Positions 11,001 to 51,919 are shown, numbered from the stretch's first letter. The stretch is DNA of 64,000 nucleotides from an uncultured Ignavibacteriales bacterium (GCA_964520865.1 CAZFOY010000002.1:2278-66277); one strand, 5' to 3'. A program made the numbers and translations. The notes: generated by a model not told the origin, from the sequence alone.

Positions 11001-11988
11001 GCTGTTCGTTCTTCCGGTTCCATCGCTTCATGGCAGCCTCGGAGCTGTAACACCCGACGCCGTGATGGGTCATCAGGAGTTCCCCGTTGTATACCGGAAG
11101 ATGAATGTTTTTCTGGGCCGTTACCGAGTCATAGAGCTGATCTGAAGTGATGTTCTCGACTTTGAGCGGTCCATCGCTCTTCTCCGATTTGGTCAGCCAG
11201 TCGACCGACAGAGAGTCGGGCGCCCCGCCTGTATCTCCGGTCCCGAAATACATAACGCCGGCGTACAGACCCGAGGAATCCCCCTGATTGTTCACTTTCC
11301 TCAGCCAGGTGGTGTCACGGCTCATGTCGTGCTTGAGTTGTGTTCCGTAAGAACCCGGATTCACTGCCGACACCAGCCGGGAACCGTCGACACCCTCCCA
11401 GAGGCCGATGTCGAACGGTACGCCGACAGCCGATCCCCAGGTAAGCTTCTGTGTGGAGAAGCTCTTGAGACCGCAGTGTGCCGCAATTGAGGGGAGAGCA
11501 TAGCCGAATCCAAAGCAGTCGGGGAGAAAGACGTCGTTGCTGGTTTTGCCGAATTCACGTTTGAAATAGCCGTTGCCGTACAGCGTCTGGCGTACCAGCG
11601 ACTCGAAGGATGGAATGTTTACATCCATCGCATCAACCCAGCTTCCTGTGACATGCCAGCGTCCTTCGGCGATGTATTTCTTCAGTTGTGCGAACTCCTC
11701 GGGATAATATTCCTGAAGAAGCATATAATGGAAAGCGCCTTCCCAGCCAAAGGTGTAGCTGGGATATTCCCGCATGAGTTTGAAATTGTCGTGGAAGGTT
11801 GCGGGGACGAATTCGTTGATCGTATTTTGTATCGTCCAGCGCCACTGCGTGTCGAGGTGCGAGGTGCCGACCGCCCACAGGCGTTTGGCCGGCATGCCGG
11901 AGGTATCCGGTGATGGTTGAGTCTTTCCTGTCATGAAGAATCCTACCGTAAAGATGCAGACTGCTATAATACTGTTTCGCATACACAC
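8026..11988 (-). CDS. secreted GH38 alpha-mannosidase with C-terminal chitobiase/hexosaminidase-C-like and PA14 domains
   Basis: GH38 N-domain GTSHLDTQWRWT, central WHQFHDDVTGTS. Near the C-terminus, ATIRYTLDGSEPT (CHB_HEX_C-like) followed by PA14-like YYEGSW...GYIKVSSDGLYDFDLSSDDGSRLWV. N-terminal signal/TM present. Confidence 0.9.
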   Translation of the reverse strand: MCMRNSIIAVCIFTVGFFMTGKTQPSPDTSGMPAKRLWAVGTSHLDTQWRWTIQNTINEFVPATFHDNFKLMREYPSYTFGWEGAFHYMLLQEYYPEEFAQLKKYIAEGRWHVTGSWVDAMDVNIPSFESLVRQTLYGNGYFKREFGKTSNDVFLPDCFGFGYALPSIAAHCGLKSFSTQKLTWGSAVGVPFDIGLWEGVDGSRLVSAVNPGSYGTQLKHDMSRDTTWLRKVNNQGDSSGLYAGVMYFGTGDTGGAPDSLSVDWLTKSEKSDGPLKVENITSDQLYDSVTAQKNIHLPVYNGELLMTHHGVGCYSSEAAMKRWNRKNEQLGDAAERASVIAESMGGYRYPREFLRDTWIRFIWHQFHDDVTGTSIPEAYEFSWNDEILCLNRFAGVLQNAVEATSPVLDTRAKGTPVLIYNPLAIDRQDIADVDINFEGKTPASFRVYGPDNKEVPSQVLSINSGKAHVIFLAHAPSVGYAVYDVRPSDKPCAIQTGLSATSSQLDNQQYTVKLNQYGDITSVFDKALNRELLSAPASLQMLHDKPKQWPAWEIQYEDIIDTPKTVSDKPAEIRVIENGPVRVSLEITRHTPNSDFHQVVSLGAGASGSRVEVNNTVDWYERETLLKAAFPLTCANEKVTYDLGLGTIQRGIDQPKLYEVPAHQWADMTSPDGSYGVAVLNDCKYGWDHPDSGTLRLTLIHTPGVYENWSWVGDQRSMDEGHHRFTFAIVGHAGDWRKGDIAWEGARLNQPLYAFQVPEHKGTMGKTLSMLSLVKSDAPNQPAPVMITAVKKAEDTSQIVVRMRELTGSPVDGLKMSFDRPIASARELNGSEEEIGPLTVDNGSLDLSFKKYQPRTIAVTLSPAKERPVETPLSAVLEMPFNHDGISTNENRTDGDFDGHAYTIAGDLLPELLVYKNVAFKFGPKKDGENNVVVCEGQDLNIPAGTFNRCYILAAAVDGPAEGKFSVDGKETNVWVQDYHEKLGQWNNRLVGGNFVEERGQIAPAYINREPVAWVGTHRHTPKGENDAYEYTYLFLVELDLPEGAKHVTLPNDKRIRIMAATAVNTPYDKIVPAHPLYDEIDNAIVNLVAKRHDFLDNLDVSLTSPTPGATIRYTLDGSEPTITSAVYKEPIKLTKTTTLKASAFKDNGVSPYSISSKFTKATLIEAVQPPANPVNGLACTYYEGSWDNLPDFDSLAPVKQTVMDSIVIPDFARPEDFGLLFTGYIKVSSDGLYDFDLSSDDGSRLWVADSLIVDNDGLHGEGEVPGSIALKAGYHPITIRMFQKKGDEALAVFVSGKNLEKREISPQMLFHLPVTAKNK

Positions 11989-12043
11989 CTCCTGTGTAAT
12001 CAGCGCTTTTCGAGAAGCGGTCGGTGATGTTGAACGAGGATCG

Positions 12044-13423
12044 CTATCCGGAGAATCTGAATCCTCGTTGTTTCAATCTATCGAGCAAGACCGCGGCGAG
12101 GATCACTCCGCCGAGGACGACTTTTTGGGTGTAACTTTCCACATTCGTGAGATTCATGCCGTTCTGGATGACGGCGATAATGAACGCTCCGATCAATGTT
12201 CCGGAGATTCGTCCTTCGCCACCCATCAGGCTGGTGCCCCCTACAACCACGGCTGCAATAACATATAACTCATACGTCAGGCCGTAGGTCGGAGCGCCAC
12301 TTTTTAACTGCGAGGCCATGATGACTCCGCCGAGGCCGGCCAGGAGTCCGCAGATGACATAAGCCCAGAACAGAATTAACTTCACGCGAATCCCGGACAG
12401 ACGGGCAGCTTCAGGATTGCCGCCTACGGCGTAAATGTATCGTCCAATCGTGGTTCGAGTCATTACGATGTGGGCGAGAACGTACAAGACGATCATCAGG
12501 ATGACGGCGTAAGGGATATTGAACAGCGGATCGGCGCCGCGACCGAGCAAAATAAATCCGTCGGGGAGCTGATATATCGGCTTTCCCTGCGATATGATAT
12601 AGGCAAACCCGGCCGCCACCTGCATCATCGACAGCGTGGCGATAAACGGAGGAATGCCGAATCCGGTGATCATCACGCCGCTGAACGCGCCGGTCGCCGC
12701 GCATACGAGGATGCCGCCGAGTCCGGCGATGAGGACAGCCGTGGTCGAGGCCGAAGCTCCGCCCATATGACCTACGATCCACGCAGTCACAACTGCCGAA
12801 AGTGCGATCAGACTGCCGACCGACAAGTCGATTCCGGCGGTGATAATGACAATGGTCATACCGATCGCGATAATTGCTATGACCGTTATTTGATTGGCTA
12901 CATTGCGCAGATTGTCGGCAAGCAGAAAGGTCGGCCAGCGGTAAGTCGGGGGCGTCACGATCTCACTCGATTGATAGTCCTTCAACTGTGACACGATCGC
13001 GCCGATCACGGCCGAAAATGATTGAGTGGTGGCGATGATCTGAGGAACTTCCTTCCGCAACGCGACCTGACTGAGGGAATCGCGAAGAACACTCGGCTCG
13101 CTGGAGAAGATAATGCGCGATGGAATCGAGGATTCCTTGAGCTTTCTCTCTAAAGTGTTCGCGAAGAGGGAGTCTTCGCCGTTTACTCGCGCGACTATAA
13201 GCACGCCGCTGTTCAGAGATTGGTTCTGCTTCAGAGAGGTCATTAGCTTTTCTGCGGCGCTTGACCCTGTTGGCGACTGCTCTCTCAATGTGAGCACGGA
13301 AAAGAGGAGACACAGGATAAGCAGAACTCCCAGCATGCCATAGTCACCGAGAATCTTCGACCATCGGCCCCGACTCGCTTTAGGGCGTTCCGTCCGTACC
13401 GATTTCTTCGTCTCTTCAGTCAC
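12044..13423 (-). CDS. sugar ABC transporter permease (RbsC/AraH family) with about 150-aa N-terminal extension
   Basis: The C-terminal 310 aa are a typical ribose-type permease core (GIDLSVGS..., GGTSLMGGEG). GTGA overlap with the upstream ATPase stop. Confidence 0.85.
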   Translation of the reverse strand: MTEETKKSVRTERPKASRGRWSKILGDYGMLGVLLILCLLFSVLTLREQSPTGSSAAEKLMTSLKQNQSLNSGVLIVARVNGEDSLFANTLERKLKESSIPSRIIFSSEPSVLRDSLSQVALRKEVPQIIATTQSFSAVIGAIVSQLKDYQSSEIVTPPTYRWPTFLLADNLRNVANQITVIAIIAIGMTIVIITAGIDLSVGSLIALSAVVTAWIVGHMGGASASTTAVLIAGLGGILVCAATGAFSGVMITGFGIPPFIATLSMMQVAAGFAYIISQGKPIYQLPDGFILLGRGADPLFNIPYAVILMIVLYVLAHIVMTRTTIGRYIYAVGGNPEAARLSGIRVKLILFWAYVICGLLAGLGGVIMASQLKSGAPTYGLTYELYVIAAVVVGGTSLMGGEGRISGTLIGAFIIAVIQNGMNLTNVESYTQKVVLGGVILAAVLLDRLKQRGFRFSG

Positions 13424-37483: not shown

Positions 37484-38233
37484 CTATTTTTTACGTCTGC
37501 GAACGATTCCGGTACCCAGCAGGCCAAGACCGAACAGGAGCATTGTCCCCGGTTCAGGTACGGCAGTCGTGAAGTTCTCTTCCATCAGGTCATTGCCACA
37601 GCCGACATTGACGTGGAAGGACAAACTGTTGAAGTTTCCGAGCAGCGAACGGTCAAACTTCAATTCCCAAACGTACGTGTCGCCGTTTCCGGGAGACATG
37701 TAGTTCGTCTCGAGATCCGGGGCGAAAGTCATCATCGAATTGACCGAACCCAGAAGATTCCCTTGGGCCATTTCATGAGCGCCGGCGGCGTTTCTGATGG
37801 TCGAATTGCTGTAGTAGCTGTGGGGATCCTGCTGAATGTAGTTCCAGCTGTTTACCTGATACAGGCCGGTATTGTTGCCGCCTGCAGTGAGATCGACGGC
37901 ATACTGATATTTGTTGCCGCCGTCGACACCGATAAACAGATCGCCGAGTCTGAACCCTTCCTGGGAATAGCCAAATGAGTTCGTCAGCGATACGTAAACG
38001 AAATCCTGGTCTACCGCCACATTCAGACCTTCAAGATCGAATGCCTCACCGCCCGGATTGTATGAACCGGGGGAAGGCTGGTGGCCTATCCCGTAAGGAT
38101 AGCTGATGGGAGCCCAGTTGTTGTTGTGGTCGAAGATGTGGTCCTGTCCAAAGTCGTAGTAGGTGTAGCTGAAGCCGAAAGCCTGAACTGACACCAGCAT
38201 GAGGGCCGCGACCAGAATTACAAGTTTCTTCAT
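37484..38233 (-). CDS. PEP-CTERM sorting-domain secreted protein
   Basis: Signal peptide. C-terminal VPEPGTMLLFGLGLLGTGIVRRRKK is a canonical PEP-CTERM motif plus TM plus basic tail. Confidence 0.85.
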   Translation of the reverse strand: MKKLVILVAALMLVSVQAFGFSYTYYDFGQDHIFDHNNNWAPISYPYGIGHQPSPGSYNPGGEAFDLEGLNVAVDQDFVYVSLTNSFGYSQEGFRLGDLFIGVDGGNKYQYAVDLTAGGNNTGLYQVNSWNYIQQDPHSYYSNSTIRNAAGAHEMAQGNLLGSVNSMMTFAPDLETNYMSPGNGDTYVWELKFDRSLLGNFNSLSFHVNVGCGNDLMEENFTTAVPEPGTMLLFGLGLLGTGIVRRRKK

Positions 38234-38248
38234 AATATCTCCTGTACT

Positions 38249-38290
38249 GCAATTGATTATATTCGTCCAGTCCTACCTATAGCAATTGAT
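38249..38290. repeat. two exact copies of GCAATTGAT, 33 bp apart, bracketing the promoter above
   Basis: Copies at 38249-38257 and 38282-38290. A third exact copy in inverted orientation lies at 51326-51334. Confidence 0.6.
38256..38285 (-). promoter_or_regulatory. candidate sigma70 promoter of the PEP-CTERM gene (-35 TTGCTA, 18 nt, -10 TATAAT)
   Basis: Consensus -10 at 38261-38256. AGGAG RBS downstream. Both core elements abut copies of ATCAATTGC. Confidence 0.45.
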
Positions 38291-38566
38291 ATGCCGCCTA
38301 TCGGTGCTCACGAGACGATATGTATCTCTTTTGAATACAGAGACTTACGCTACCCAATCCGGTTTTCAAGAGACGATAGTGGCAAGCCGTTGCACAATGT
38401 TTGCGAAAATCACGATTCCATACGGGTGCGTTGCATCAGTTGTAGCTCGGTGGAATTTAAGGCGATAGACCTCCCGTTTCTTCATCTTGAAGCTGCTGAA
38501 AGCAGGTAAACTACAGCAATTGTGGTGTCATCTCACGGTTGGGCTGTCACAAAAAAAGGAACTACC

Positions 38567-39838
38567 GTGAGAATATTTGGTCGCAAGAAACTGCCGATTC
38601 CGCCTGCTACCGCCGCGATGAAGAATCCGGCAACAGTATTAATGGGGAACCAACCAGCGGTCGGACGGAAAAGCATCGGTCGGTATTTGCCGGGACTGCC
38701 TGTGGATAGCGGCTTATCCCGGAGGAACAAAATAATGCTCTACCGCTTCCTCGCGGACGAGATCCCGGTTGTGCAGGCGTGCGTGGCTACCTGGGTGAGG
38801 ATGAGCACCGCTCCCGGAAAGTATGTGATTAATCCCGATGTCTCAGCCGCGGTCCGGAAGCGGGCCGACGGGAAGCTGAACGAGCTTGCCGACCGACTCA
38901 ATTCGCACGAGCAACGAAGGCAAGGAAGCCTGGTCACGTTTCTCGCCGAGCTGTTTCAAGGGCTGTACCGTGACGGAGCATTCGGTGGGTTCCTCAGGGT
39001 GAGAGAAGATGGGATTGCTATCGACCGATTTCAACCTGTAGACACTTCGTCGGTCATACTGGACTCCACGAACGGTCAACGTCGGCTTCTGTTCGAAGGA
39101 AAAGATCAGTTGCTATCGCTCGACAGCCCTGATTTCTACATGCTGTCATTCAATTCCGATGAAACCCGTCCGCTCGGTCGATCGATCCTGCAAACCATTC
39201 CGTTCGTAGCGTACATTCAGCAGCAGCTTGTCGATGATATGCGGAGGACAAGTCATAACGCGGGCTATCATCGGCTGCATGTCAAGGTAACCCCTCCCGA
39301 ACGAATCTCCGGCGAGTCGGACAAAGCCTACATCGATCGGATCAACAGCTACTTCGACTCCACTGTCTCGATGATCAAGTCATGCCGGATCGATGAGAAC
39401 CCGGTGACCTGGGACAATGTTGCCATCGATCATATCGGTCCGGAGAACGTACGGGCCGTTACCAACAGCTGGTTCATGAATCATCGGGCGATGGTCGAAG
39501 AAATCTGCGCCGGAACCAACCTCGCTCCATTCATGCTTGGTTATTCGTACGGTGCCACTTCGACATGGTCGTCGTTCAAGTTCGATCTGGCGATGAGACA
39601 GGTGCGTTCGGTGCAAGCCGAGGCCGCTACTTTCCTTGAGTGGATCGGAAACATTGAATTGACTCTCGCCGGCATTCCCGCAACTTGCAGCTTTCACTTT
39701 GACAACACCTACGCATATCAAGCAACCGATGCCTCGGCGATTCGGGCGCGAGAGGTCGATGGCCTGCTCAGACTGTTCGAGTCAGGTCTGATCGACGAAG
39801 CCACCGCCCGCCAGAAAGCCCAGCAGCTGCTTTCGTGA
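38567..39838 (+). CDS. phage portal-like protein (putative)
   Basis: Translationally coupled (GTGA) to a terminase large subunit. About 420 aa. The N-terminal LYRFLADEIPVVQACVATW region is reminiscent of Mu gp29/DUF935-type portals. Start uncertain: GTG at 38567 with AAGGA 6 nt upstream, or the track start at 38522. Confidence 0.45.
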   Translation: MRIFGRKKLPIPPATAAMKNPATVLMGNQPAVGRKSIGRYLPGLPVDSGLSRRNKIMLYRFLADEIPVVQACVATWVRMSTAPGKYVINPDVSAAVRKRADGKLNELADRLNSHEQRRQGSLVTFLAELFQGLYRDGAFGGFLRVREDGIAIDRFQPVDTSSVILDSTNGQRRLLFEGKDQLLSLDSPDFYMLSFNSDETRPLGRSILQTIPFVAYIQQQLVDDMRRTSHNAGYHRLHVKVTPPERISGESDKAYIDRINSYFDSTVSMIKSCRIDENPVTWDNVAIDHIGPENVRAVTNSWFMNHRAMVEEICAGTNLAPFMLGYSYGATSTWSSFKFDLAMRQVRSVQAEAATFLEWIGNIELTLAGIPATCSFHFDNTYAYQATDASAIRAREVDGLLRLFESGLIDEATARQKAQQLLS

Positions 39839-41163
39839 CGATTGCCGAACAGGTCGACTGGCGCCTGGCCCTGGCCGATCCGGTTCACTTCGCGGAAGCA
39901 GTGCTCGGAATCAGCCTGCACCCGGGTCAGAAGAATTGGCTTCGTGAATCAATATCACACGAGAACCTGCTCGTTACAGGGAATCGGTGGGGAAAATCGT
40001 TTATCTGCGCGGTCAAGGCGCTTCATCGGGCGGTCTTTCGATTACGCGATATCAAATATGATACTTCCCGCAAATACCGCATTGTTACCGCCTCGATCAC
40101 GCAAGACCAGGCGAATATCGTTTTTGACCGAGCCGTCCGGCTGCTTCGTGAATCCGAGCTGCTCCATCCTTTCATTCTCACACTGACGAGATCCCCCTAT
40201 CCGCGATTGGTACTTTCGAACGGCGCGGTGCTCGAGGCGCGTTCGACGCAGAATCGGGGAGAGTATCTTCTTGGTAACGACTATGATTACTTCATCTTCG
40301 ATGAAGTCGCGTTCGAGAGCGATCCCGACTATGTCGTCGAAGAGGTCATCAAAATGCGCCTTGCCGACCGTGAGGGGATGCTTGATCTCGTCTCCACGCC
40401 GAATGGTCGAAACTGGTTCTACCTCCGCGCACGCGAAATAATCGAACGAAAACGGCCCGGGTACTTTCAGTCCGGGGATACCCGGGACAACAAATTCATT
40501 TCAGAAAGCGCAGTTCGGGCACGAATCGAGTCGTTCTCCGACCGCAGAGTTCAGCAAAACATCATGGGGAAGTTCGTCGACAGCGGCGGCGAGATTCTCA
40601 AAGGTGAATATGTCGATCGCGCGTTGGAGAACGCAAAGCGCATCGGGCAGGGAGCTGATTCGACCCGCTATTTTGTCTCGGGATGGGATCTTGCTCGCAA
40701 GAGAACTGCCACGGTTGGTGTGACAGTCTCGGTTGAAAACGGACACGCACATGTCGTCTGCCTGGAGCGATTTCGAATGTTCGACTGGAACGTGGTCATT
40801 GAGAAGATCCGCCAGCGCCAGGAAGAGTACCCCGGAGAACTGGTCGTAGATGCTACCGGGCTGGGTGATGTCGTCGTTGAGCAACTCCGGGATTACCGAC
40901 CGACCGCCGTAATCTTCTCGCCATCGACCAAGGCAGAACTGCTCACCAATGTCGAGCTTTACCATGCCCGTAATCTGCTGTCATACCACCGCTGGGAATT
41001 GCCGGATGGACCGGGGCGGATCTGGTCGCTCGAAGATGAACTTCGCAAGGCGCAGTGGGATGACAATTCAGAATGCGATGCCCTGATGGCATTAGCCCTC
41101 GCGCTGTGGCCGCTCAGAAAACGCAAGATGATTGCACCACTGCCCAGAGTCGGACGAGTGTAG
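39835..41163 (+). CDS. phage terminase large subunit-like protein
   Basis: Walker A-like GNRWGKS, Walker B YDYFIFDE, coupling motif STP. The C-terminal RNase H-like nuclease has acidic motifs GWDLA, VVDATGLG and CDALMALALA. Confidence 0.85.
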   Translation: MTIAEQVDWRLALADPVHFAEAVLGISLHPGQKNWLRESISHENLLVTGNRWGKSFICAVKALHRAVFRLRDIKYDTSRKYRIVTASITQDQANIVFDRAVRLLRESELLHPFILTLTRSPYPRLVLSNGAVLEARSTQNRGEYLLGNDYDYFIFDEVAFESDPDYVVEEVIKMRLADREGMLDLVSTPNGRNWFYLRAREIIERKRPGYFQSGDTRDNKFISESAVRARIESFSDRRVQQNIMGKFVDSGGEILKGEYVDRALENAKRIGQGADSTRYFVSGWDLARKRTATVGVTVSVENGHAHVVCLERFRMFDWNVVIEKIRQRQEEYPGELVVDATGLGDVVVEQLRDYRPTAVIFSPSTKAELLTNVELYHARNLLSYHRWELPDGPGRIWSLEDELRKAQWDDNSECDALMALALALWPLRKRKMIAPLPRVGRV

Positions 41164-45911: not shown

Positions 45912-46529
45912 TCAACGGATTATCGAAACCTGTTCGATGTCATCCAGCGGTACTTCAACTTTGCCGCCGTTGTTGCTACCCACGAGTCGCCACTCGTTCT
46001 TGAAACTTAGCGTAGGTTGATCGAGCACGGTGGTTTGTTTCTTTCCCTGTGCGTTCATTCGCTCGAGTTTGAGACGTTGTCTGCCCCTGATCGCCGCGTT
46101 GATGAGCATCGAAGACAGAATCTCCGAACAGTCGCTTACCTTTGCCACGCCGGCAAGCTGCTCCTCGTAGGCATCGAGAATCTCCTCCAGCGGATGCTCC
46201 TGACTTGAAATCAATTTGGAGATCAACATCTCGATATTGCCCTGATACCTGTCGCCAAGGCCGGCCGCGAGCAAACGCAGGCCGGAGACGAGCATGACCG
46301 CTTCATCCGGTCCGAGTGCAACCCCCTGGCTTTTGTTCCGCTGATACAGCCGGTACGCCTTGAGCCGCTTGTCGTATACGACCGGGAAGTTCGCCTCGGA
46401 GATGTCGTTGATGTATCGGTAGGCGGTTCGTTCCGGGACTCCACAAACTCGCTCGATCGTCTTCAGGGTGACCATCGGTCGATTCGTGAACAGATTAATA
46501 AGAGTGAGGATTCTACTTAGTTTGTTCAT
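45912..46529 (-). CDS. HTH (DeoR/YafY-type) regulator with WYL-like C-terminal domain
   Basis: N-terminal LSRILTLINLFTNRPMVTLKTIERVCGVPERTAYRYINDI is a winged HTH. C-terminal ...FKNEWRLVGSNNGGKVEVPLDDIEQVSII resembles the WYL beta-barrel. At 205 aa it is shorter than typical YafY proteins. Confidence 0.55.
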   Translation of the reverse strand: MNKLSRILTLINLFTNRPMVTLKTIERVCGVPERTAYRYINDISEANFPVVYDKRLKAYRLYQRNKSQGVALGPDEAVMLVSGLRLLAAGLGDRYQGNIEMLISKLISSQEHPLEEILDAYEEQLAGVAKVSDCSEILSSMLINAAIRGRQRLKLERMNAQGKKQTTVLDQPTLSFKNEWRLVGSNNGGKVEVPLDDIEQVSIIR

Positions 46530-46578: not shown

Positions 46579-46839
46579 CTACAAGACTATATTAACGAGT
46601 ACATTGAATACATCCAGATAGCTGATTCCTTCGGGTGCGATCGAGTAGGTACCTCCGGTGCCCGTCGTATCGGTAACCACACCGTTTGAAGTCCCGGTTG
46701 TGTCGGGCGTCGGACACGGCGGATCGCCGCCGTCACCGGCGAGAGCGATACCGGGAAGCAGCCCGGCTGCGCAGAATTGAATTACAAGAATTACCAGTCC
46801 GATGATGATGCTGTGTTTCAGTAACTGATCTCTTCTCAT
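46579..46839 (-). CDS. small secreted/membrane protein (86 aa), Thr/Gly-rich with duplicated DTTGT motif
   Basis: GGAGG lies 5 nt upstream of the ATG. N-terminal hydrophobic segment ends ...GIALA/GD. Mature part reads PPCPTPDTTGTSNGVVTDTTGTGGTYS..., with a hydrophobic C-terminus. Confidence 0.55.
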   Translation of the reverse strand: MRRDQLLKHSIIIGLVILVIQFCAAGLLPGIALAGDGGDPPCPTPDTTGTSNGVVTDTTGTGGTYSIAPEGISYLDVFNVLVNIVL

Positions 46840-46882
46840 TTCTACCTCCTCTTGAAGTTGGTGCGTTCTACAAGTGGGGGTA

Positions 46883-46899
46883 TATCAAAACGGCTGCCA
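46883..46899 (-). promoter_or_regulatory. sigma54-like promoter element TGGCAG-N5-TTTGA
   Basis: The minus strand reads TTGGCAGCCGTTTTGATA. GG and TTG have the correct -24/-12 spacing, but the -12 is GA instead of GC. About 45 nt upstream of the small-protein ATG and just downstream of the EBP-type gene. Confidence 0.3.
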
Positions 46900-47105
46900 A
46901 CGCGGACGCGCTCACATCGCTCGTGCTATGACATTCGATGACAGTGGATTACGAGAAATTGCCCGCTGCTGACTAATAGCGGATTAACCAATTCTATTCA
47001 GGCGGTTGATTCGTCAAACGGGTAACTTGTTGATAGACATGCCGACGACAATGCCGGAAGATGGGTGCAAAGTTGGGTAATTCGGTAATCTGAAGGGGAA
47101 AAAGG

Positions 47106-50100
47106 CTAATCTTTGAGGTGATATTTCTGAATTTTATACTGTAGCGTGGCGTAGGGCATACCAAGAGCCTCGGCGGTCCGCTTCACATTCCCTTTGTTCT
47201 TGATTAATGTCGCGCGTATCGTCTCTTTCTCAATCTGTTCTTTGAGCTTTTTCTTTTGCTGCGGGTCGTTGAAGGCCCGTTGCATTGGGGAAGGAAGATC
47301 GGTAAGCTTGACCTTCTCGCCGGCCTGGACAACACAGAATCTTTCTACGACGTTACGGAGTTCGCGCACGTTGCCGGGCCAGTCGTAGCTGAGGAAGGCC
47401 ATCCGCACATCATGCTCGAACACAGGTGGACGGTGACCGGTCGAGAAAAGCTTGACGAAGTGCTCTAGGAGTAACCTGATATCGTCGATGCGTTCTCGGA
47501 GCGGCGGGATTTCGAACACATATCCGCTGATACGATGGTAAAGGTCGCTGCGGAAGGTCCCTTCATCGATCATTTTCAACAGATCCTTATTGGTCGCGTA
47601 GATGAACCGGATATCTGTCTTGAGCACTTTGTTGCTGCCGACACGCTCGAACTCCTGGTACTCGACAGCACGGAGGATCTTGGCTTGGGCTGCGAGCGGC
47701 ATGTCGCCAATCTCGTCAAGGAACAGCGTCCCTCCATCGGCGGCTGAAAATTTTCCGTCGCGTGCCGCGACACCGGTTGCCGCGTTGCTCGCGACACCGA
47801 AAAGTTCACTTTCGAGCATGCTCTCAGGAAGCGCCGAGCAGTTGAGTTTCACCAGAGGACGATCCTTGCGATCGCTCAACCGGTGAAGATACTCGGCTAC
47901 GATTTCCTTGCCGGTGCCACTTTCTCCAAGTATCAGCACTGGCAGGGAGAACCGGGCGATCTCCGGAAGCCGGTCGAACATTTTCTGAACGGCACGATCC
48001 TGCGTGATGAACCGGTGCGCCCCGATCTGCTTGTTGATATCTTCAACCAGCTGGCGGTTAATGACGCTCATGTCGCGATAGCTTTCGATTGCCGAAAGCA
48101 TCAGGCCGATGAAATTGGCGATTGATCTGATGTACGTTACATCGTCCTGCTCGAACAAGGCCGGAATCGTGTGGTGATCCAGATAGAGCACGCCCAGCAG
48201 TTTATCTCCGTGCATGATAGGCAGGCAGATGACCGAGAGGATGTTGTGCGCCACGATGCTACGGTAGTCTTTAGTCCGCTTGTCGGTTACGGCATTGTCG
48301 AGAATGAGCGGTTCGTGCTGATGGGCCACCTGTGACGGAACTCTCATGCTGATGTCGGCGATGTCCCGAAGGCTTTCGTCGTCGCAATTGACAAACGCCT
48401 TCACCCGTAGCTCGTCGGACTGACTCGCCTTTTCAAGAATTACCCCTCGCTCCGCGCCGGTCTGATCGACGGCAAAACGGACAATCTGTTCCAGTGAACG
48501 ACCATAGTCGTCAATATGCTTCAGAATCTCGGATATGCCCAGCAGTGAGGCAACGATTCGCCCGATATTTTCCTCAGGGTTTTCAACCGTGTCGATTTCT
48601 GATTGCAGACCGGCCATCATAGGTTTGTTCTTCAATTGAGTGGCATGTCTCAGCGACTGAATGAGGAACTTAGTCCTTAGTTTCCCTCGACCGGACTTGC
48701 CGTACTCCAGGGCAATTCTCCGACAAACGATCATAGCGGCGAACGTTCTGCCCGCGCCGGACAGAATGCGATAACAGGATTTTAGCATCAAGAGCAGTTG
48801 CTCAGAATTGACCTCACCGTTCATGAGTGGCTTCAATTCTTTAAGTACGGCGAATATCGGAATCTCGGCGGTTTCGATCAACGGCTCGAGCGTGGCTGTC
48901 GTTTGCTTCAGGTCATCGAATCGAGTTTCGTTTTCATCCATCAGCATGTAGAAGAGGCAGTAGCCAGCGTCCCACACTGCGTCGTACTCTATCAGACTCT
49001 GCATGAGCGGCAGCAGATCAGGCGGAGGTTCAGTGGTATTGAATTTTCGGTTGGTCGAGACTACCAACTCCAATTCCTGCTGGCATCTCTGGTTATCGAT
49101 CCTTTCGAAAATATGGCGGGCGGACTCGGCGTATTCCGAAACTTGTTGAGTATTCCCTTCAAAGCAGGCGATTTCGGCAAGAGCCATATAGATGTGTCCC
49201 TCTGTCAGAGCGACCATATCGTTTCTTACCAGGTCCAATGCTATCATTGCTGCTGATTTCGCTTGTTCCAGGGAGCTGCGTGTTTTCTCCAAAACCAAAA
49301 GGCTGTAGTAGTACGTTGCAAATTCGCGGTGATCCATTTCCGAGGCATAGTTGCTCCAGACTCTGCTGAGCCAGTATTCCGCCTTTCGATATTCACCGAG
49401 CCTCAGATAGCAGAAGCCGAGGTGTCTCCACATTTCACGCTCCCGCCAGCGCTCCGATCCCTTTATCGCGTCCATCGTCAGCACGGCTCTTGCCGTTTTG
49501 ATGGTATCACCCGGCCGGTACATGGTGCGAAGGCATGAGACCAGGCCGGCTGCCCCCCGAAGCGCTTCGCTTTCGAGACGAACATCGCGGGCAACCTCAT
49601 AACTCTTGCGAAACTGCATCTCGGCGTCGGCCGTCCTCCCCTGGGTGAAAGCGGCATAGCCAAGCACATAATGGTTGGTCGAATCGAGCAAGGGCGAGTC
49701 GAGTTCCGAGGAACGTTCCAGGATCGTCCGCATGGACTCCTCAACCTCGGCGAATTTACCTTCCAGGCAGAGCACCAGGGCACCAAGAGACTCGAATACC
49801 AGCTCCATTTCGAGGGAGTGTGCCTTTCTCGCCTCGGCCATGCCGAGCTCAGCGAGATCAGCACCATACTGATTCGGCCTGATTCCGAACGACCTCGGTA
49901 TGAGACGATAGACGAGATCCAGGTCGACCGCGTTTCTGGACTGCTGCAGCCGGACCGCTTCATCCATCAACGAGACGCACTCACGCCGTAGGCCCATTTG
50001 TAATGCGAGATCAGCCGATTCTTTCAGAACTCTTTCAAGCAATTCCGTGCTCAGCTCGAGCTGCTTTTCGATATGAGCCTCCCGGATCGCCTGATAAATC

Positions 50101-51293
50101 AGCAGGGCAGGCTCCGGGATGTCGCGATCTGAGAGGTCATTCGCGGTTCGAGCGGCTTCACTCACGATTTCCTGCGATGTAAGCGTGCATTGAGCGGGGA
50201 TCAAGGCATGCCCCGCGCTTATCTCTGAAGCGGCATTGTACACTTCGATGAGCAGATTGCCGGGTGGAGCCAGGTACCAGTACTCCCCGAGCCTCTTGAT
50301 TGCGCTCTCCAGGGCGATTCGCCTGAACAAAGCAAAGGCCTGGCGCTTCGAATTGCGCAGGATATCCTGAAGGCTGTCGACCAATTCGGTTCGGAGTCCC
50401 AAAATCTTGCAGGCGTCCAGCAACGACTTCTTGATGCCGGCGTTCTCGATCTGACGCACACCGGTCTCACGGTACCGATTGAGAAGTATGATCCCCGCGA
50501 GCTTACGCTCTAATTCGGCATGTCGCTTTTGGTCGACGAACTTGTACTTGAGTAGCGTGTCTATGAGCACCCTTGGCCGATGCAGCGGATCCGCGCTCGT
50601 CAGTTCGTCCGCAAGTTCCCTGAGCCTCGAGACATCAGCTTCGACATCGTGAGCGGTCCGATCAAGCGACTCCTCGATCACTTTTTTGAGCATCATGCCG
50701 ATGGAAAAATTGTCCGATTGAATCAGAATCGTCTCATTGTTGAGAATCTCCGGCGCGATGTGATCCGGGCTGCCGACAATTCGAGCCTTCGGGTAGGAGC
50801 CGGCTTCACACATGAAGTCGAGGTCGATAAGGCGAATCCGTGGAACACCTTTCGAATCTGAGGGGCCAACTATGAAATTGCTCAGTTTCAGGTCACAGTG
50901 GACAAACTGAAGGAAGTGGAGATAGTCAATTGTGAGAAAGAGTTCCGGTAGCAGGAGATCAAGGCGCTCCAGTAACAACGATCCGGTGAGAACCTGCCAT
51001 CGATCCTCGTCGAACTTCGGATACTCGATGAACAATACCCCGTTCTCGACACACTTAGCCCGGGCGGTCAGGACCCGTGGATTTCTTATGCCGCGCTGGC
51101 AGGAGTAAGAGTTGAGTAGAACATTTCGCTTTTCATCGGTCGGAATAGTGCTTTCCGGATTGACCGTCTTAACAAAACAGGGATACCCGCTGGCTGTCGA
51201 CTCGGCGATCCAGGATTGACTCAAATCGTTGGTTGAAAGAAGATGGACGAAGTGGTATTTGGTGCTGACAGGGTCTGACATGGTAGCCGCCAC
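47106..51293 (-). CDS. Ser/Thr protein kinase - helical/TPR - GAF - sigma54-type AAA+ - Fis HTH fusion regulator (1395 aa)
   Basis: Kinase motifs: CFVKTV (Lys), HCDLKLSNFIV, IDLDF, GSPDHIAPE. GAF: ...LSVICLPIMHGDKLLGVLYLDH. AAA+: VLILGESGTGKE, GGTLFLDEIGDM, WPGNVRELRN. C-terminal HTH: GNVKRTAEALGMPYATLQYKI. GTG start; ATG alternative at 51281. Confidence 0.85.
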   Translation of the reverse strand: MAATMSDPVSTKYHFVHLLSTNDLSQSWIAESTASGYPCFVKTVNPESTIPTDEKRNVLLNSYSCQRGIRNPRVLTARAKCVENGVLFIEYPKFDEDRWQVLTGSLLLERLDLLLPELFLTIDYLHFLQFVHCDLKLSNFIVGPSDSKGVPRIRLIDLDFMCEAGSYPKARIVGSPDHIAPEILNNETILIQSDNFSIGMMLKKVIEESLDRTAHDVEADVSRLRELADELTSADPLHRPRVLIDTLLKYKFVDQKRHAELERKLAGIILLNRYRETGVRQIENAGIKKSLLDACKILGLRTELVDSLQDILRNSKRQAFALFRRIALESAIKRLGEYWYLAPPGNLLIEVYNAASEISAGHALIPAQCTLTSQEIVSEAARTANDLSDRDIPEPALLIYQAIREAHIEKQLELSTELLERVLKESADLALQMGLRRECVSLMDEAVRLQQSRNAVDLDLVYRLIPRSFGIRPNQYGADLAELGMAEARKAHSLEMELVFESLGALVLCLEGKFAEVEESMRTILERSSELDSPLLDSTNHYVLGYAAFTQGRTADAEMQFRKSYEVARDVRLESEALRGAAGLVSCLRTMYRPGDTIKTARAVLTMDAIKGSERWREREMWRHLGFCYLRLGEYRKAEYWLSRVWSNYASEMDHREFATYYYSLLVLEKTRSSLEQAKSAAMIALDLVRNDMVALTEGHIYMALAEIACFEGNTQQVSEYAESARHIFERIDNQRCQQELELVVSTNRKFNTTEPPPDLLPLMQSLIEYDAVWDAGYCLFYMLMDENETRFDDLKQTTATLEPLIETAEIPIFAVLKELKPLMNGEVNSEQLLLMLKSCYRILSGAGRTFAAMIVCRRIALEYGKSGRGKLRTKFLIQSLRHATQLKNKPMMAGLQSEIDTVENPEENIGRIVASLLGISEILKHIDDYGRSLEQIVRFAVDQTGAERGVILEKASQSDELRVKAFVNCDDESLRDIADISMRVPSQVAHQHEPLILDNAVTDKRTKDYRSIVAHNILSVICLPIMHGDKLLGVLYLDHHTIPALFEQDDVTYIRSIANFIGLMLSAIESYRDMSVINRQLVEDINKQIGAHRFITQDRAVQKMFDRLPEIARFSLPVLILGESGTGKEIVAEYLHRLSDRKDRPLVKLNCSALPESMLESELFGVASNAATGVAARDGKFSAADGGTLFLDEIGDMPLAAQAKILRAVEYQEFERVGSNKVLKTDIRFIYATNKDLLKMIDEGTFRSDLYHRISGYVFEIPPLRERIDDIRLLLEHFVKLFSTGHRPPVFEHDVRMAFLSYDWPGNVRELRNVVERFCVVQAGEKVKLTDLPSPMQRAFNDPQQKKKLKEQIEKETIRATLIKNKGNVKRTAEALGMPYATLQYKIQKYHLKD

Positions 51294-51371
51294 ATTACCT
51301 ATTTGCGATATTGCCTCTTCAGTTTATCAATTGCGAGAGCCGGAACCACTGCTTCGGATCGTTATCCGCAT

Positions 51372-51400
51372 AGTATAGTCAATTGAGTTCTGTTAATCAA
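51372..51400 (-). promoter_or_regulatory. candidate sigma70 promoter of the kinase-EBP gene (-35 TTGATT, 17 nt, -10 TATACT)
   Basis: Read on the minus strand. Both hexamers overlap or abut CAATTGA motifs. Confidence 0.4.
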
Positions 51401-51919
51401 TTGGTTATGTGCGATCACAAATCAGCCTGTCGTTCCATTCGAGAAATCGACTCGCTTGTCAAGATATGTACGTGGGAAATAGCACTGGAAGTAACCAGGC
51501 TGATCGGAAAGGACGCCCTTAGCAGAGCCGGTCCCTATCCCGATCAGGAAGTGTTCGCGTCACAGGATAGAGCTTGGTTGCCGTAAGGATGCTGTACGGA
51601 CATGTAAGACAAGGTCTTAGGGTGGGCGTGGTGTTGCGCGACGCTGCGAACTCGCTCGCGACAGTCGGAACACCGCCGCGACAACACTGTTTCGATAGAC
51701 ATAGGTACAAGTTGACGGGCCGGGTTTGACTGCTCTCGTTGTCCGCTAACGGAAGATGACGACAGTTGCTCCTTTACTTCGCCAGGGCTTTCAGCTATGG
51801 TGATGTAACTTCACACGCCACCGATTGGCGAATGCGAAAGTGTGGATGTTAATTGTCGGCCGATTTTGCCGAAATTGTAAGAACAGCAGAGATAGGAAAG
51901 CAGCAATGACAAGGAGTCC

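Follow-up and report, generated by a model that had tools for sequence, protein, structure and literature searches.

A giant kinase-TPR-GAF-AAA+ regulator with a variant L1 loop and its adjoining sigma54-type promoter in an uncultured Ignavibacteriales bacterium and its relatives

The 64,000-nt stretch of DNA analysed here (the window; GCA_964520865.1, CAZFOY010000002.1:2278-66277), from an uncultured Ignavibacteriales bacterium, carries on its minus strand a giant regulator gene whose product joins an atypical protein kinase domain, a long tetratricopeptide (TPR) superhelix, a GAF domain, a sigma54-type AAA+ module and a Fis-type helix-turn-helix (HTH), and which is followed by a sigma54-type promoter and two small genes (Table 1). 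The Phe of the GAFTGA motif is treated as a hallmark of sigma54 activators and as essential to their action, and genome surveys often judge by this motif whether proteins resembling enhancer-binding proteins (EBPs) use sigma54. A preliminary description of this DNA had reported NAATGV in place of GAFTGA at the L1 loop tip of the regulator, and had pointed to the tension between this loss of the Phe and a sigma54-like element next to the gene.

The reading frame of the regulator is open for the 1395 codons previously given as the length of the protein, although translation most likely begins at the ATG of 51281, which yields 1391 amino acids (P0001, whose numbering is used for all conserved residues below), because the closest homologues begin with MSDP. 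Pfam matches along this open reading frame (ORF) comprise Pkinase at residues 59-209 (partial, 52 bits), TPR_12, GAF at 933-1064, Sigma54_activat at 1096-1257 (196 bits, nearly the full model), AAA_lid_14 and HTH_8 (1.8e-10), in agreement with the architecture first proposed for it. In NCBIfam, the C-terminal third groups with NifA, NorR, PspF and AtoC, with NifA and NorR as the best matches and all scores below the equivalog cut-offs. The G+C content of the window is about 54%, and composition shows no break at the regulator locus.

With the N-terminal 1056 residues as query, 20 full-length homologues of 1374-1424 amino acids were recovered, 28-59% identical to the regulator and with the same Pfam content. 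When the GAF-AAA+-HTH part was used in an exhaustive HMMER search, the ~120 best-scoring representatives of 50%-identity clusters belonged to the regulator family; with few exceptions they are 1320-1460 amino acids long and matched at residues ~920-1390. A profile of the kinase domain scanned against one genome per GTDB species identified 46 true regulator loci, labelled Zixibacteria, GN15, Calditrichota and, under automated third-party annotation names, Ignavibacteriales, and in almost all of these the gene is a single uninterrupted ORF of ~1390-1450 codons. The nearest relative, at 59% identity, lies on a 2.26-Mb Zixibacteria contig (locus L001) in complete synteny with the window. Two of the loci, L034 and L035, come from one Zixibacteria metagenome-assembled genome (RS_7_36), and at L035 the kinase-like match falls in an ORF of only 388 amino acids. 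An artificial fusion of two genes by a frameshift or assembly error, which the preliminary description had named as a possible objection, is ruled out, the same single ORF being found in more than 100 independent assemblies and shared by the 20 homologues, more than 118 cluster representatives and the 46 loci. Judged by this recurrence, the family is real and phylum-wide, extending over Zixibacteria and relatives.

Table 1. Features of the regulator gene and of the two genes that follow it (positions in the window)
Feature	Position	Strand	Basis or remark
Giant regulator ORF	47106..51293	-	1395 codons open from GTG at 51293
Atypical Hanks-type protein kinase domain	50544..51269	-	Pfam, family alignment, profile against PDB, AlphaFold2, Foldseek
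Helical linker, then TPR superhelix (MalT-domain-III/LGN-like)	48519..50543	-	AlphaFold2, Foldseek, TPR_12, TPR_MalT
GAF domain with invariant Cys/Asp/His cluster	48096..48497	-	Pfam, 20-homologue alignment
Sigma54-interaction AAA+ core	47523..48008	-	Pfam, phmmer, 20-homologue alignment
L1 loop tip NAATGV replacing GAFTGA	47769..47786	-	phmmer, family alignment
AAA+ lid domain and C-terminal Fis-type HTH (HTH_8)	47121..47498	-	Pfam
Candidate enhancer (upstream activating sequence), heptamers	46958..47089	-	Repeat inspection across lineages
-24/-12 sigma54-type promoter TGGCAGCCGTTTTGAT (GG-N10-GA)	46884..46899	-	Position and sequence conserved across the family
Leader hairpin	46845..46879	-	5' CCCC(A)C pairs with GGAGG Shine-Dalgarno of the small ORF
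86-aa signal-peptide protein	46579..46839	-	Signal peptide ...ALA/GDGG, acidic Gly/Pro/Thr-rich linker, short hydrophobic C-terminus
205-aa HTH_11/WYL-type regulator, last gene of the module	45912..46529	-	Pfam, PADLOC, synteny

The AAA+ core is complete apart from its loop tip. The PF00158 match covers model positions 2-164 of 168, phmmer aligns the AAA+ module with the structures of FleQ and ZraR at 2.6e-70, and the Walker A (GESGTGKE) and Walker B (DE) motifs are present. Across the 20 homologues, K1125, the switch residue N1147, D1189/E1190, sensor I T1230/N1231, R1244, R1250 and sensor II R1306 are invariant. In the alignments with FleQ and ZraR, NAATGV stands opposite GAFTGA, anchored on the common Thr-Gly and adjoining a one-residue gap, so that Ala takes the place of the Phe; the coordinates and loop assignment given earlier are thus upheld. 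With the Thr-Gly anchor and an unambiguous family alignment, a mis-aligned loop that hides a genuine GAFTGA is ruled out. No GAFTGA-like string occurs in any frame of the 64-kb window, and neither Phe nor Tyr stands at the tip in the window protein.

The variant loop is characteristic of the family. Counted from FG to G[KR]F, it has 13 residues in 117 of 118 family-sized proteins, vs. 14 in PspF, FleQ and ZraR, and the six tip positions read G, N or K at the first, V (63), A (34) or T (13) at the second, A (107), V (5), F (4) or Y (2) at the third, which is the Phe position, T (111) or S (7) at the fourth, G (95) or D (15) at the fifth, and V (112) at the sixth. This conservation exceeds that of the domain as a whole (~45-55% identity), which argues for purifying selection on a function of the loop, rather than decay. 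The ATGV loop is also found outside the family, in two proteins of 1670-1780 amino acids (P0144 and P0157) and in a short GAF-AAA+-HTH protein (P0145), while P0022, which has the same long kinase-STAND-TPR-GAF-AAA+ architecture, retains a canonical GAFSGA loop. From this distribution, the window family looks like a reduced derivative of the long STAND architecture in which the STAND module is gone and the kinase has diverged.

The loop has one precedent with a proposed regulon. DVUA0100 of Desulfovibrio (Nitratidesulfovibrio) vulgaris (DVU_RS16390; FGIERGVATGVSARKG), a predicted regulator of type III secretion, has the same 13-residue loop, aligns without gaps and is 45% identical to the regulator over the AAA+ domain, and the type III secretion locus to which it belongs contains the GG-N10-GC elements TGGCATACTTGCTGCT and TGGCCCGCTTTTCGCA. 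From a regulon reconstruction, Kazakov et al. concluded that its GVATGV loop is no bar to the activation of sigma54 promoters (PMC4641369). A full-text literature search for the loop strings returned no other relevant paper.

Downstream of the regulator, the genes are arranged as a module, which in ~40 loci has the same order on one strand: the regulator, ~200 nt, the promoter, a signal-peptide protein of ~86 amino acids and an HTH/WYL-type regulator of ~205 amino acids; the exception is the lineage of L009 and L014, which is without the small ORF. The module has different flanking genes from genome to genome, those of the window being glgB, malQ and pyruvate dehydrogenase genes to one side and carAB to the other. 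The promoter accompanies the regulator gene whatever these surrounding genes are. The spacer from the regulator stop codon to the small ORF is near-constant at ~260 nt, and in the window TGGCAGCCGTTTTGAT lies 45 nt before the small-ORF start codon and is kept in the relative with 59% identity.

In a curated set of 33 loci, for which selection required GG-N9-TG only, the promoter reads YGGCAY-N5-(T)TG and lies at +183 to +224 after the regulator stop. The positions that were not selected for are conserved as well (C in 28/33, A in 31/33, Y in 29/33 and T in 28/33). A strict pattern, [CT]GGCA[CT]-N5-[CT]TG within a 110-nt interval, occurred in 24 of 44 loci, vs. 0.12 on average and never more than 2 in 500 shuffles. 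The spacing and the -24 half are sigma54-type. No sigma70-like hexamer pair was seen on the coding strand of the spacer between regulator and small ORF. At L006 (~4820, minus strand), L008 and L030, extra elements of the YGGCAC-N5-TTGA type occur 38-101 nt upstream of divergent ORFs of 141-154 amino acids that lie shortly before the regulator gene, and the activator may have additional targets there in these lineages.

Between the regulator stop and the promoter lie short repeats. In the window, ATTACCG (47089-47083), ATTACCC (47081-47075) and GTTACCC (47026-47020) are accompanied by the inverted copies GGTTAAT (46989-46983) and GGGCAAT (46964-46958). Other lineages have a heptamer of their own in corresponding places, with direct copies immediately past the stop codon, some -190 and -182 from the -24 element, and inverted ones between about -100 and -85. 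An automatic count gave such a lineage-specific repeat upstream of the promoter in at least 14 of the 33 loci, for example TTGCCA/TGGCAA, TAGCCA/TGGCTA or TTTCA/TGAAA. This layout is what would be expected of an enhancer for the adjoining HTH-bearing activator, and the heptamers are candidate binding sites.

The two small genes have features of their own. Across loci the signal-peptide protein is 76-111 amino acids long. Its signal peptide ends in A-x-A, with D/E-G next to it; an acidic region rich in Gly, Pro, Thr and Ser and a short hydrophobic C-terminus complete the protein, which matches no Pfam or NCBIfam family. The regulator that ends the module gives weak Pfam matches to HTH_11 and PafC-HTH and matches a PADLOC WYL model at E 1.5e-19. 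A defence-system reading of the module was set aside, as the PADLOC matches are generic (kinase, RtcR-AAA+, WYL) and the module occurs throughout the phylum in a single copy, among neighbours that change. In most loci the predicted mRNA carries a CCUCC at its 5' end, immediately downstream of the -12 element, and this CCUCC is complementary to the GGAGG Shine-Dalgarno sequence of the small ORF. Extensions of this helix are lineage-specific yet complementary, as in L015 (CCUUUAUGCG/CGCAUAAAGG), L031 (CCUCCUGUGUG/CACACAGGAGG) and L027 (CUGAGUGUGAA/UUCACACUCAG). The minimum-energy fold pairs the Shine-Dalgarno sequence with the first 15 nt in 15 of 32 leaders, compared with 6.4 +/- 2.1 in shuffled leaders (maximum 14 in 200 shuffles). 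No Rfam family reached its gathering score anywhere in the window, including this leader and the 626-nt spacer upstream of the regulator.

The AlphaFold2 model of residues 1-345 (mean predicted local distance difference test, pLDDT, 90.7) has a bilobal kinase fold, for which Foldseek returned the catalytic domains of DAPK1, CaMKII and CASK (E ~1e-11), and the family kinase profile matched protein kinases in the PDB at E 5.6e-17, with CDPK1 among the alignments. Aligned in this way, the beta3 Lys is K38, the catalytic loop is H128-C-D130-L-K132-x-x-N135, and D153-L-D155 stands where DFG is canonical, with D153 as the Mg-binding Asp; the APE motif (P177/E178), D190 and the subdomain XI Arg (R235) are also kept. 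All of these, D190 included, vary little or not at all among 15-20 sequences with only ~30-38% identity. According to the family alignment, the canonical Gly-rich loop GxGxxG is absent and replaced by S16-x-N18-x-L-x-Q22-S-W24, itself invariant, and the alphaC Glu is absent as well, its position being an invariant Ser (S58) in both the family alignment and the PDB profile. The preliminary description of an apparently active kinase was thus only partly correct: the catalytic residues are in place, but with neither the Gly-rich loop nor the alphaC Glu present the claim of activity is not established, and the domain is an atypical kinase.

An alternative that we rate only slightly below an even chance is that this domain is a pseudokinase, a nucleotide- or ligand-binding scaffold left from a kinase-STAND-TPR-GAF-activator ancestor, and that regulation would run through the GAF domain and the TPR region only, with no phosphotransfer. 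The replaced Gly-rich loop and the Ser in place of the alphaC Glu are in line with this, as is the partial and weak Pkinase match of the window protein: full-length canonical kinases (131-174 bits) are present in P0144, P0157 and P0022, which also carry the AAA_16 STAND module that the window family is without. On the other hand, the beta3 Lys, the catalytic Asp, the Asn, the Mg-binding Asp, APE and the subdomain XI Arg are invariant at ~30% identity, whereas at least one of these residues is usually lost in classical pseudokinases, and the invariance of the replaced loop (S16, N18, Q22 and W24) suggests a functional nucleotide or ligand site. In the reading of the regulator favoured below, the domain might autophosphorylate, phosphorylate a partner, or serve as a nucleotide-binding regulatory module.

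The part between kinase and GAF domain had been described as a helical repeat of about 550 residues. It is indeed TPR-like and helical, but spans residues ~250-925, where a model of residues 240-925 (pLDDT 89.1) consists of a helical and beta-hairpin linker followed by a long TPR superhelix. TPR_12 and TPR_MalT match this region, and Foldseek found LGN/Pins, subunits of the anaphase-promoting complex (APC) and MalT domain III (1hz4). Pfam detects no AAA_16/NOD P-loop module, such as precedes the TPR sensor in MalT, PknK and AfsR, in the window protein, and residues 250-345 are modelled as helices and a beta-hairpin.

The GAF domain is the best conserved part of the N-terminal two thirds. It contains the invariant residues C966, D967, D973, D1035, H1036 and H1037 (motif LYLDHHTIPALF), a Cys/Asp/His cluster that, by analogy with the GAF domains of NorR and PexR, suggests a metal or redox centre. 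In both PexR (PMC12754779) and NorR (PMC2941729), the GAF domain holds the AAA+ module in an autoinhibited state and uses Cys, His and Asp to bind metal. By the same analogy, the GAF domain of the regulator probably gates its AAA+ module.

Taken together, we favour, with moderate confidence, the reading that the regulator is a signal-integrating EBP of the NtrC/NifA class, i.e., a sigma54 activator with a derived L1 loop rather than a sigma70-type derivative, because the loop is retained and conserved, the ATPase is intact and a pairing with -24/-12 elements is seen in two unrelated phyla. The preliminary description had left two options, a protein that no longer works as a canonical sigma54 activator or one that uses a variant loop. 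The second is now the better supported, by the conserved tip, the invariant ATPase residues, a loop shorter by one residue, the fixed -24/-12 promoter and the case of DVUA0100. The tension between loop and neighbouring element noted at the outset is real, and it resolves towards a putative cognate pair of activator and promoter.

Several points weigh against this reading. In Escherichia coli PspF, F85 and T86 contact sigma54 region I and every tested change in GAFTGA abolished open-complex formation (PMC3467059), and GAFTGA mutants generally fail to activate (PMC7175178); judged by the PspF findings, NAATGV should be inactive. The conserved C of the -12 element is missing from the module promoter, the base there being A in 16, T in 14 and C in 2 of the 33 curated loci. 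The cognate pairing of activator and promoter rests only on conserved adjacency, and the co-variation of the Phe with the -12 C, given below, on two clear cases, against which stands DVUA0100 with an ATGV loop and a -12 GC. Finally, rpoN was not recovered: no RpoN box was found in the window or in ~0.5 Mb of related loci.

The presence of sigma54 in these genomes is thus indicated indirectly, through a canonical promoter in the window and GAFTGA activators in sister genomes. The former, CGGCATATCAATTGCT at 38296..38281 on the minus strand, precedes a PEP-CTERM protein gene (37484..38233, minus strand) by 48 nt, and both it and an upstream block (38300..38420; TGATTTT.GCAAAC..TGTGCAA....TTGCCA) are conserved in L001. 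Ordinary promoters with a -12 GC are thus in use in this organism as well. Sister genomes (L032, L036/L040 and L039) code for GAFTGA activators of the canonical kind; L032 also carries a canonical promoter, CGGCACGCTCATTGCA, and in L036/L040 (~11500-13000) the canonical activator gene lies directly downstream of the module, with no clear -24/-12 site at the usual promoter position in these two loci. By these sequence criteria, canonical and variant promoters, as well as canonical and variant loops, coexist in the lineage.

Five family members retain an aromatic residue at the Phe position. Two of them have a clear promoter with a -12 C, namely L076 (tip NAFTGV, TGGCAACAATCTTGCG) and L078 (KAFTDV, TGGCAGGCCGCTTGCA), and L079 (GAFTGV) has only a weak candidate, CGGCGCCGACTTCGCT, also with C. 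In the two with Tyr the base differs: L077 (NAYTGV, TGGCACGGCAGGTGAA) has A, and L074 (GAYTGA) has T in its only candidate, CAGCACTGAAATTGTA, which reads AG rather than GG at -24. The -12 C is thus present in 2/2 clear Phe cases vs. 2/33 promoters accompanying Ala or Val loops (P ~0.01 by simple counting that ignores phylogeny, on a small sample). A strict coupling of Ala loops with a -12 base other than C is weakened by the ATGV loop and GG-N10-GC elements of DVUA0100 and by L012 and L028, in which Ala loops go with a -12 C.

It is unlikely, in our view, that the AAA+ module has instead left the sigma54 system in the manner of TyrR, HupR, VpsR or the NtrC of Rhodobacter capsulatus and Caulobacter, to act at sigma70 promoters or as a repressor or anti-activator on the heptamers while another, canonical activator serves the -24/-12 element. 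Loss of the Phe does inactivate PspF (PMC3467059), and relatives without GAFTGA do work at sigma70 promoters: NtrC of Caulobacter has an 8-residue L1 deletion and that of Rhodobacter capsulatus a larger one, and both act at such promoters (PMC10274813), with GAFTGA-less relatives reported in the same role in PMC6158489. The canonical activators of the lineage, including the one directly downstream of the module in L036/L040, could serve the promoter. However, the known cases delete at least eight loop residues, whereas here a single residue is missing from the loop, and the tip is conserved beyond the average of the domain. Moreover, the residues that link ATP to the movement of L1 (the switch Asn, the Walker B Glu and the Arg fingers) are invariant, the spacer is without sigma70-like hexamers on its coding strand, and the promoter goes with the regulator gene whatever its neighbours.

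The RpoN copies of Cereibacter (Rhodobacter) sphaeroides are not interchangeable. A sub-variant of the sigma54-activator reading, in which the variant loop and a TTG[A/T] -12 element form a specialised triad with a second, divergent RpoN paralogue rather than with the housekeeping sigma54, would fit the two promoter flavours of one genome (TTGC at 38296..38281 and TTGA at 46899..46884), the two loop flavours of one lineage, the -12 C of the Phe-retaining members and the specialised RpoN/activator pairs described in PMC11999139, but it is quite improbable given that the RpoN-box search of window and loci recovered no rpoN sequence and that the ATGV loop of DVUA0100 goes with ordinary GG-N10-GC promoters in D. 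vulgaris.

If the regulator is a sigma54 activator with a derived loop, it might work as follows. The HTH would bind the heptamer repeats, while the GAF domain, possibly with a bound metal or ligand, and the TPR/kinase part would control whether hexamers form and hydrolyse ATP. Driven by ATP, the variant L1 loop would move and remodel closed sigma54-RNA polymerase at the -24/-12 promoter and thereby switch on the secreted small protein and the secondary regulator, with the leader hairpin, in sequestering the Shine-Dalgarno sequence, further restraining translation of the small ORF. A bolder combined reading, which we consider doubtful, is that ATGV loops are a second natural mechanistic class of sigma54 activators, co-evolved in Zixibacteria with a -12 element without C, and that the module is an autoinducing circuit. 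In that case the contacts of ATGV proteins with sigma54 region I and the -12 fork junction would differ from those of GAFTGA proteins, and the TPR domain might detect, in RRNPP fashion, what is processed from the small secreted protein whose production the regulator itself switches on.

A large and deeply diverged natural clade thus swaps the GAFTGA Phe for Ala while keeping all else and the association with -24/-12 elements; to this clade belong the ~1390-aa proteins of kinase-TPR-GAF type from Zixibacteria, GN15 and Calditrichota, the 1700-aa STAND versions, short GAF versions and DVUA0100. If the association is functional, the rules of sigma54 engagement would be broader than the PspF/NtrC paradigm and motif-based classification of activators would need revision, and the natural variants with Phe or Ala in the loop and C or W at -12 would offer a ready set of swaps for studying how L1 reads the fork junction. 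The module itself is a phylum-wide, uncharacterised signalling unit of an uncultured lineage, in which a eukaryotic-like kinase, TPR, GAF and sigma54 logic are combined in one polypeptide.

Two further observations concern the surroundings of the module. Upstream of the regulator, a non-coding spacer of 626 nt (51294..51919) separates it from the divergent glgB-malQ-pdh genes and contains one sigma70-like site for the regulator (51400..51372, minus strand); no terminator-like site was seen in this spacer. Farther off, between the PEP-CTERM gene and carA (38522..41163, plus strand), lie a 438-aa ORF that belongs to no known family and a 442-aa ORF resembling a terminase large subunit (Terminase_6N, 3e-9). 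The same pair stands at the same place in L001 (20072..22668), and may be a domesticated or remnant phage packaging pair.

Compared with known systems, the regulator shares with MalT- and PknK-type STAND-TPR proteins a TPR superhelix like MalT domain III, and with RRNPP sensors the gene for a small signal-peptide protein with a hydrophobic C-terminus directly downstream of a TPR regulator, in both cases by analogy only. In contrast to both, it is without a NOD/P-loop and without a LuxR or N-terminal HTH, its output is a sigma54-type AAA+ module, and its hosts are not Firmicutes, so that architecture and phylum differ. TyrR, HupR, VpsR and the NtrC proteins of R. capsulatus and Caulobacter resemble it in having a PF00158 core without the canonical Phe, but in these the L1 loop is deleted or scrambled by at least eight residues and the targets are sigma70-type, while the loop of the window protein is retained and conserved and its target looks to be a -24/-12 element.

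Closer in domain order are the uncharacterised 1670-1780-aa kinase-STAND(AAA_16)-TPR-GAF-AAA+-HTH proteins P0144, P0157 and P0022, the first two of which share the ATGV loop; they differ in their canonical full-length kinase and STAND P-loop, neither of which is present in the window protein, and P0022 differs in its GAFSGA tip also. NifA, NorR, FhlA and PexR have a GAF domain, a sigma54-type AAA+ module and a Fis-type HTH in the same order. Relative to these, the window protein has ~925 extra N-terminal residues (kinase and TPR), and its family has an xAATGV tip that is one residue shorter rather than GAFTGA, with scores below the equivalog cut-offs. Its GAF residues also differ in spacing and pattern from the PexR ligands H102, H120, C122 and D140. 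DVUA0100, for its part, has only 575 amino acids, with a low-complexity or coiled-coil N-terminus in place of kinase, TPR and GAF domains, keeps -12 GC in its promoters, belongs to another phylum and has type III secretion as its regulon, but it shares with the window regulator the geometry and tip of the L1 loop and the adjoining -24/-12 promoters.

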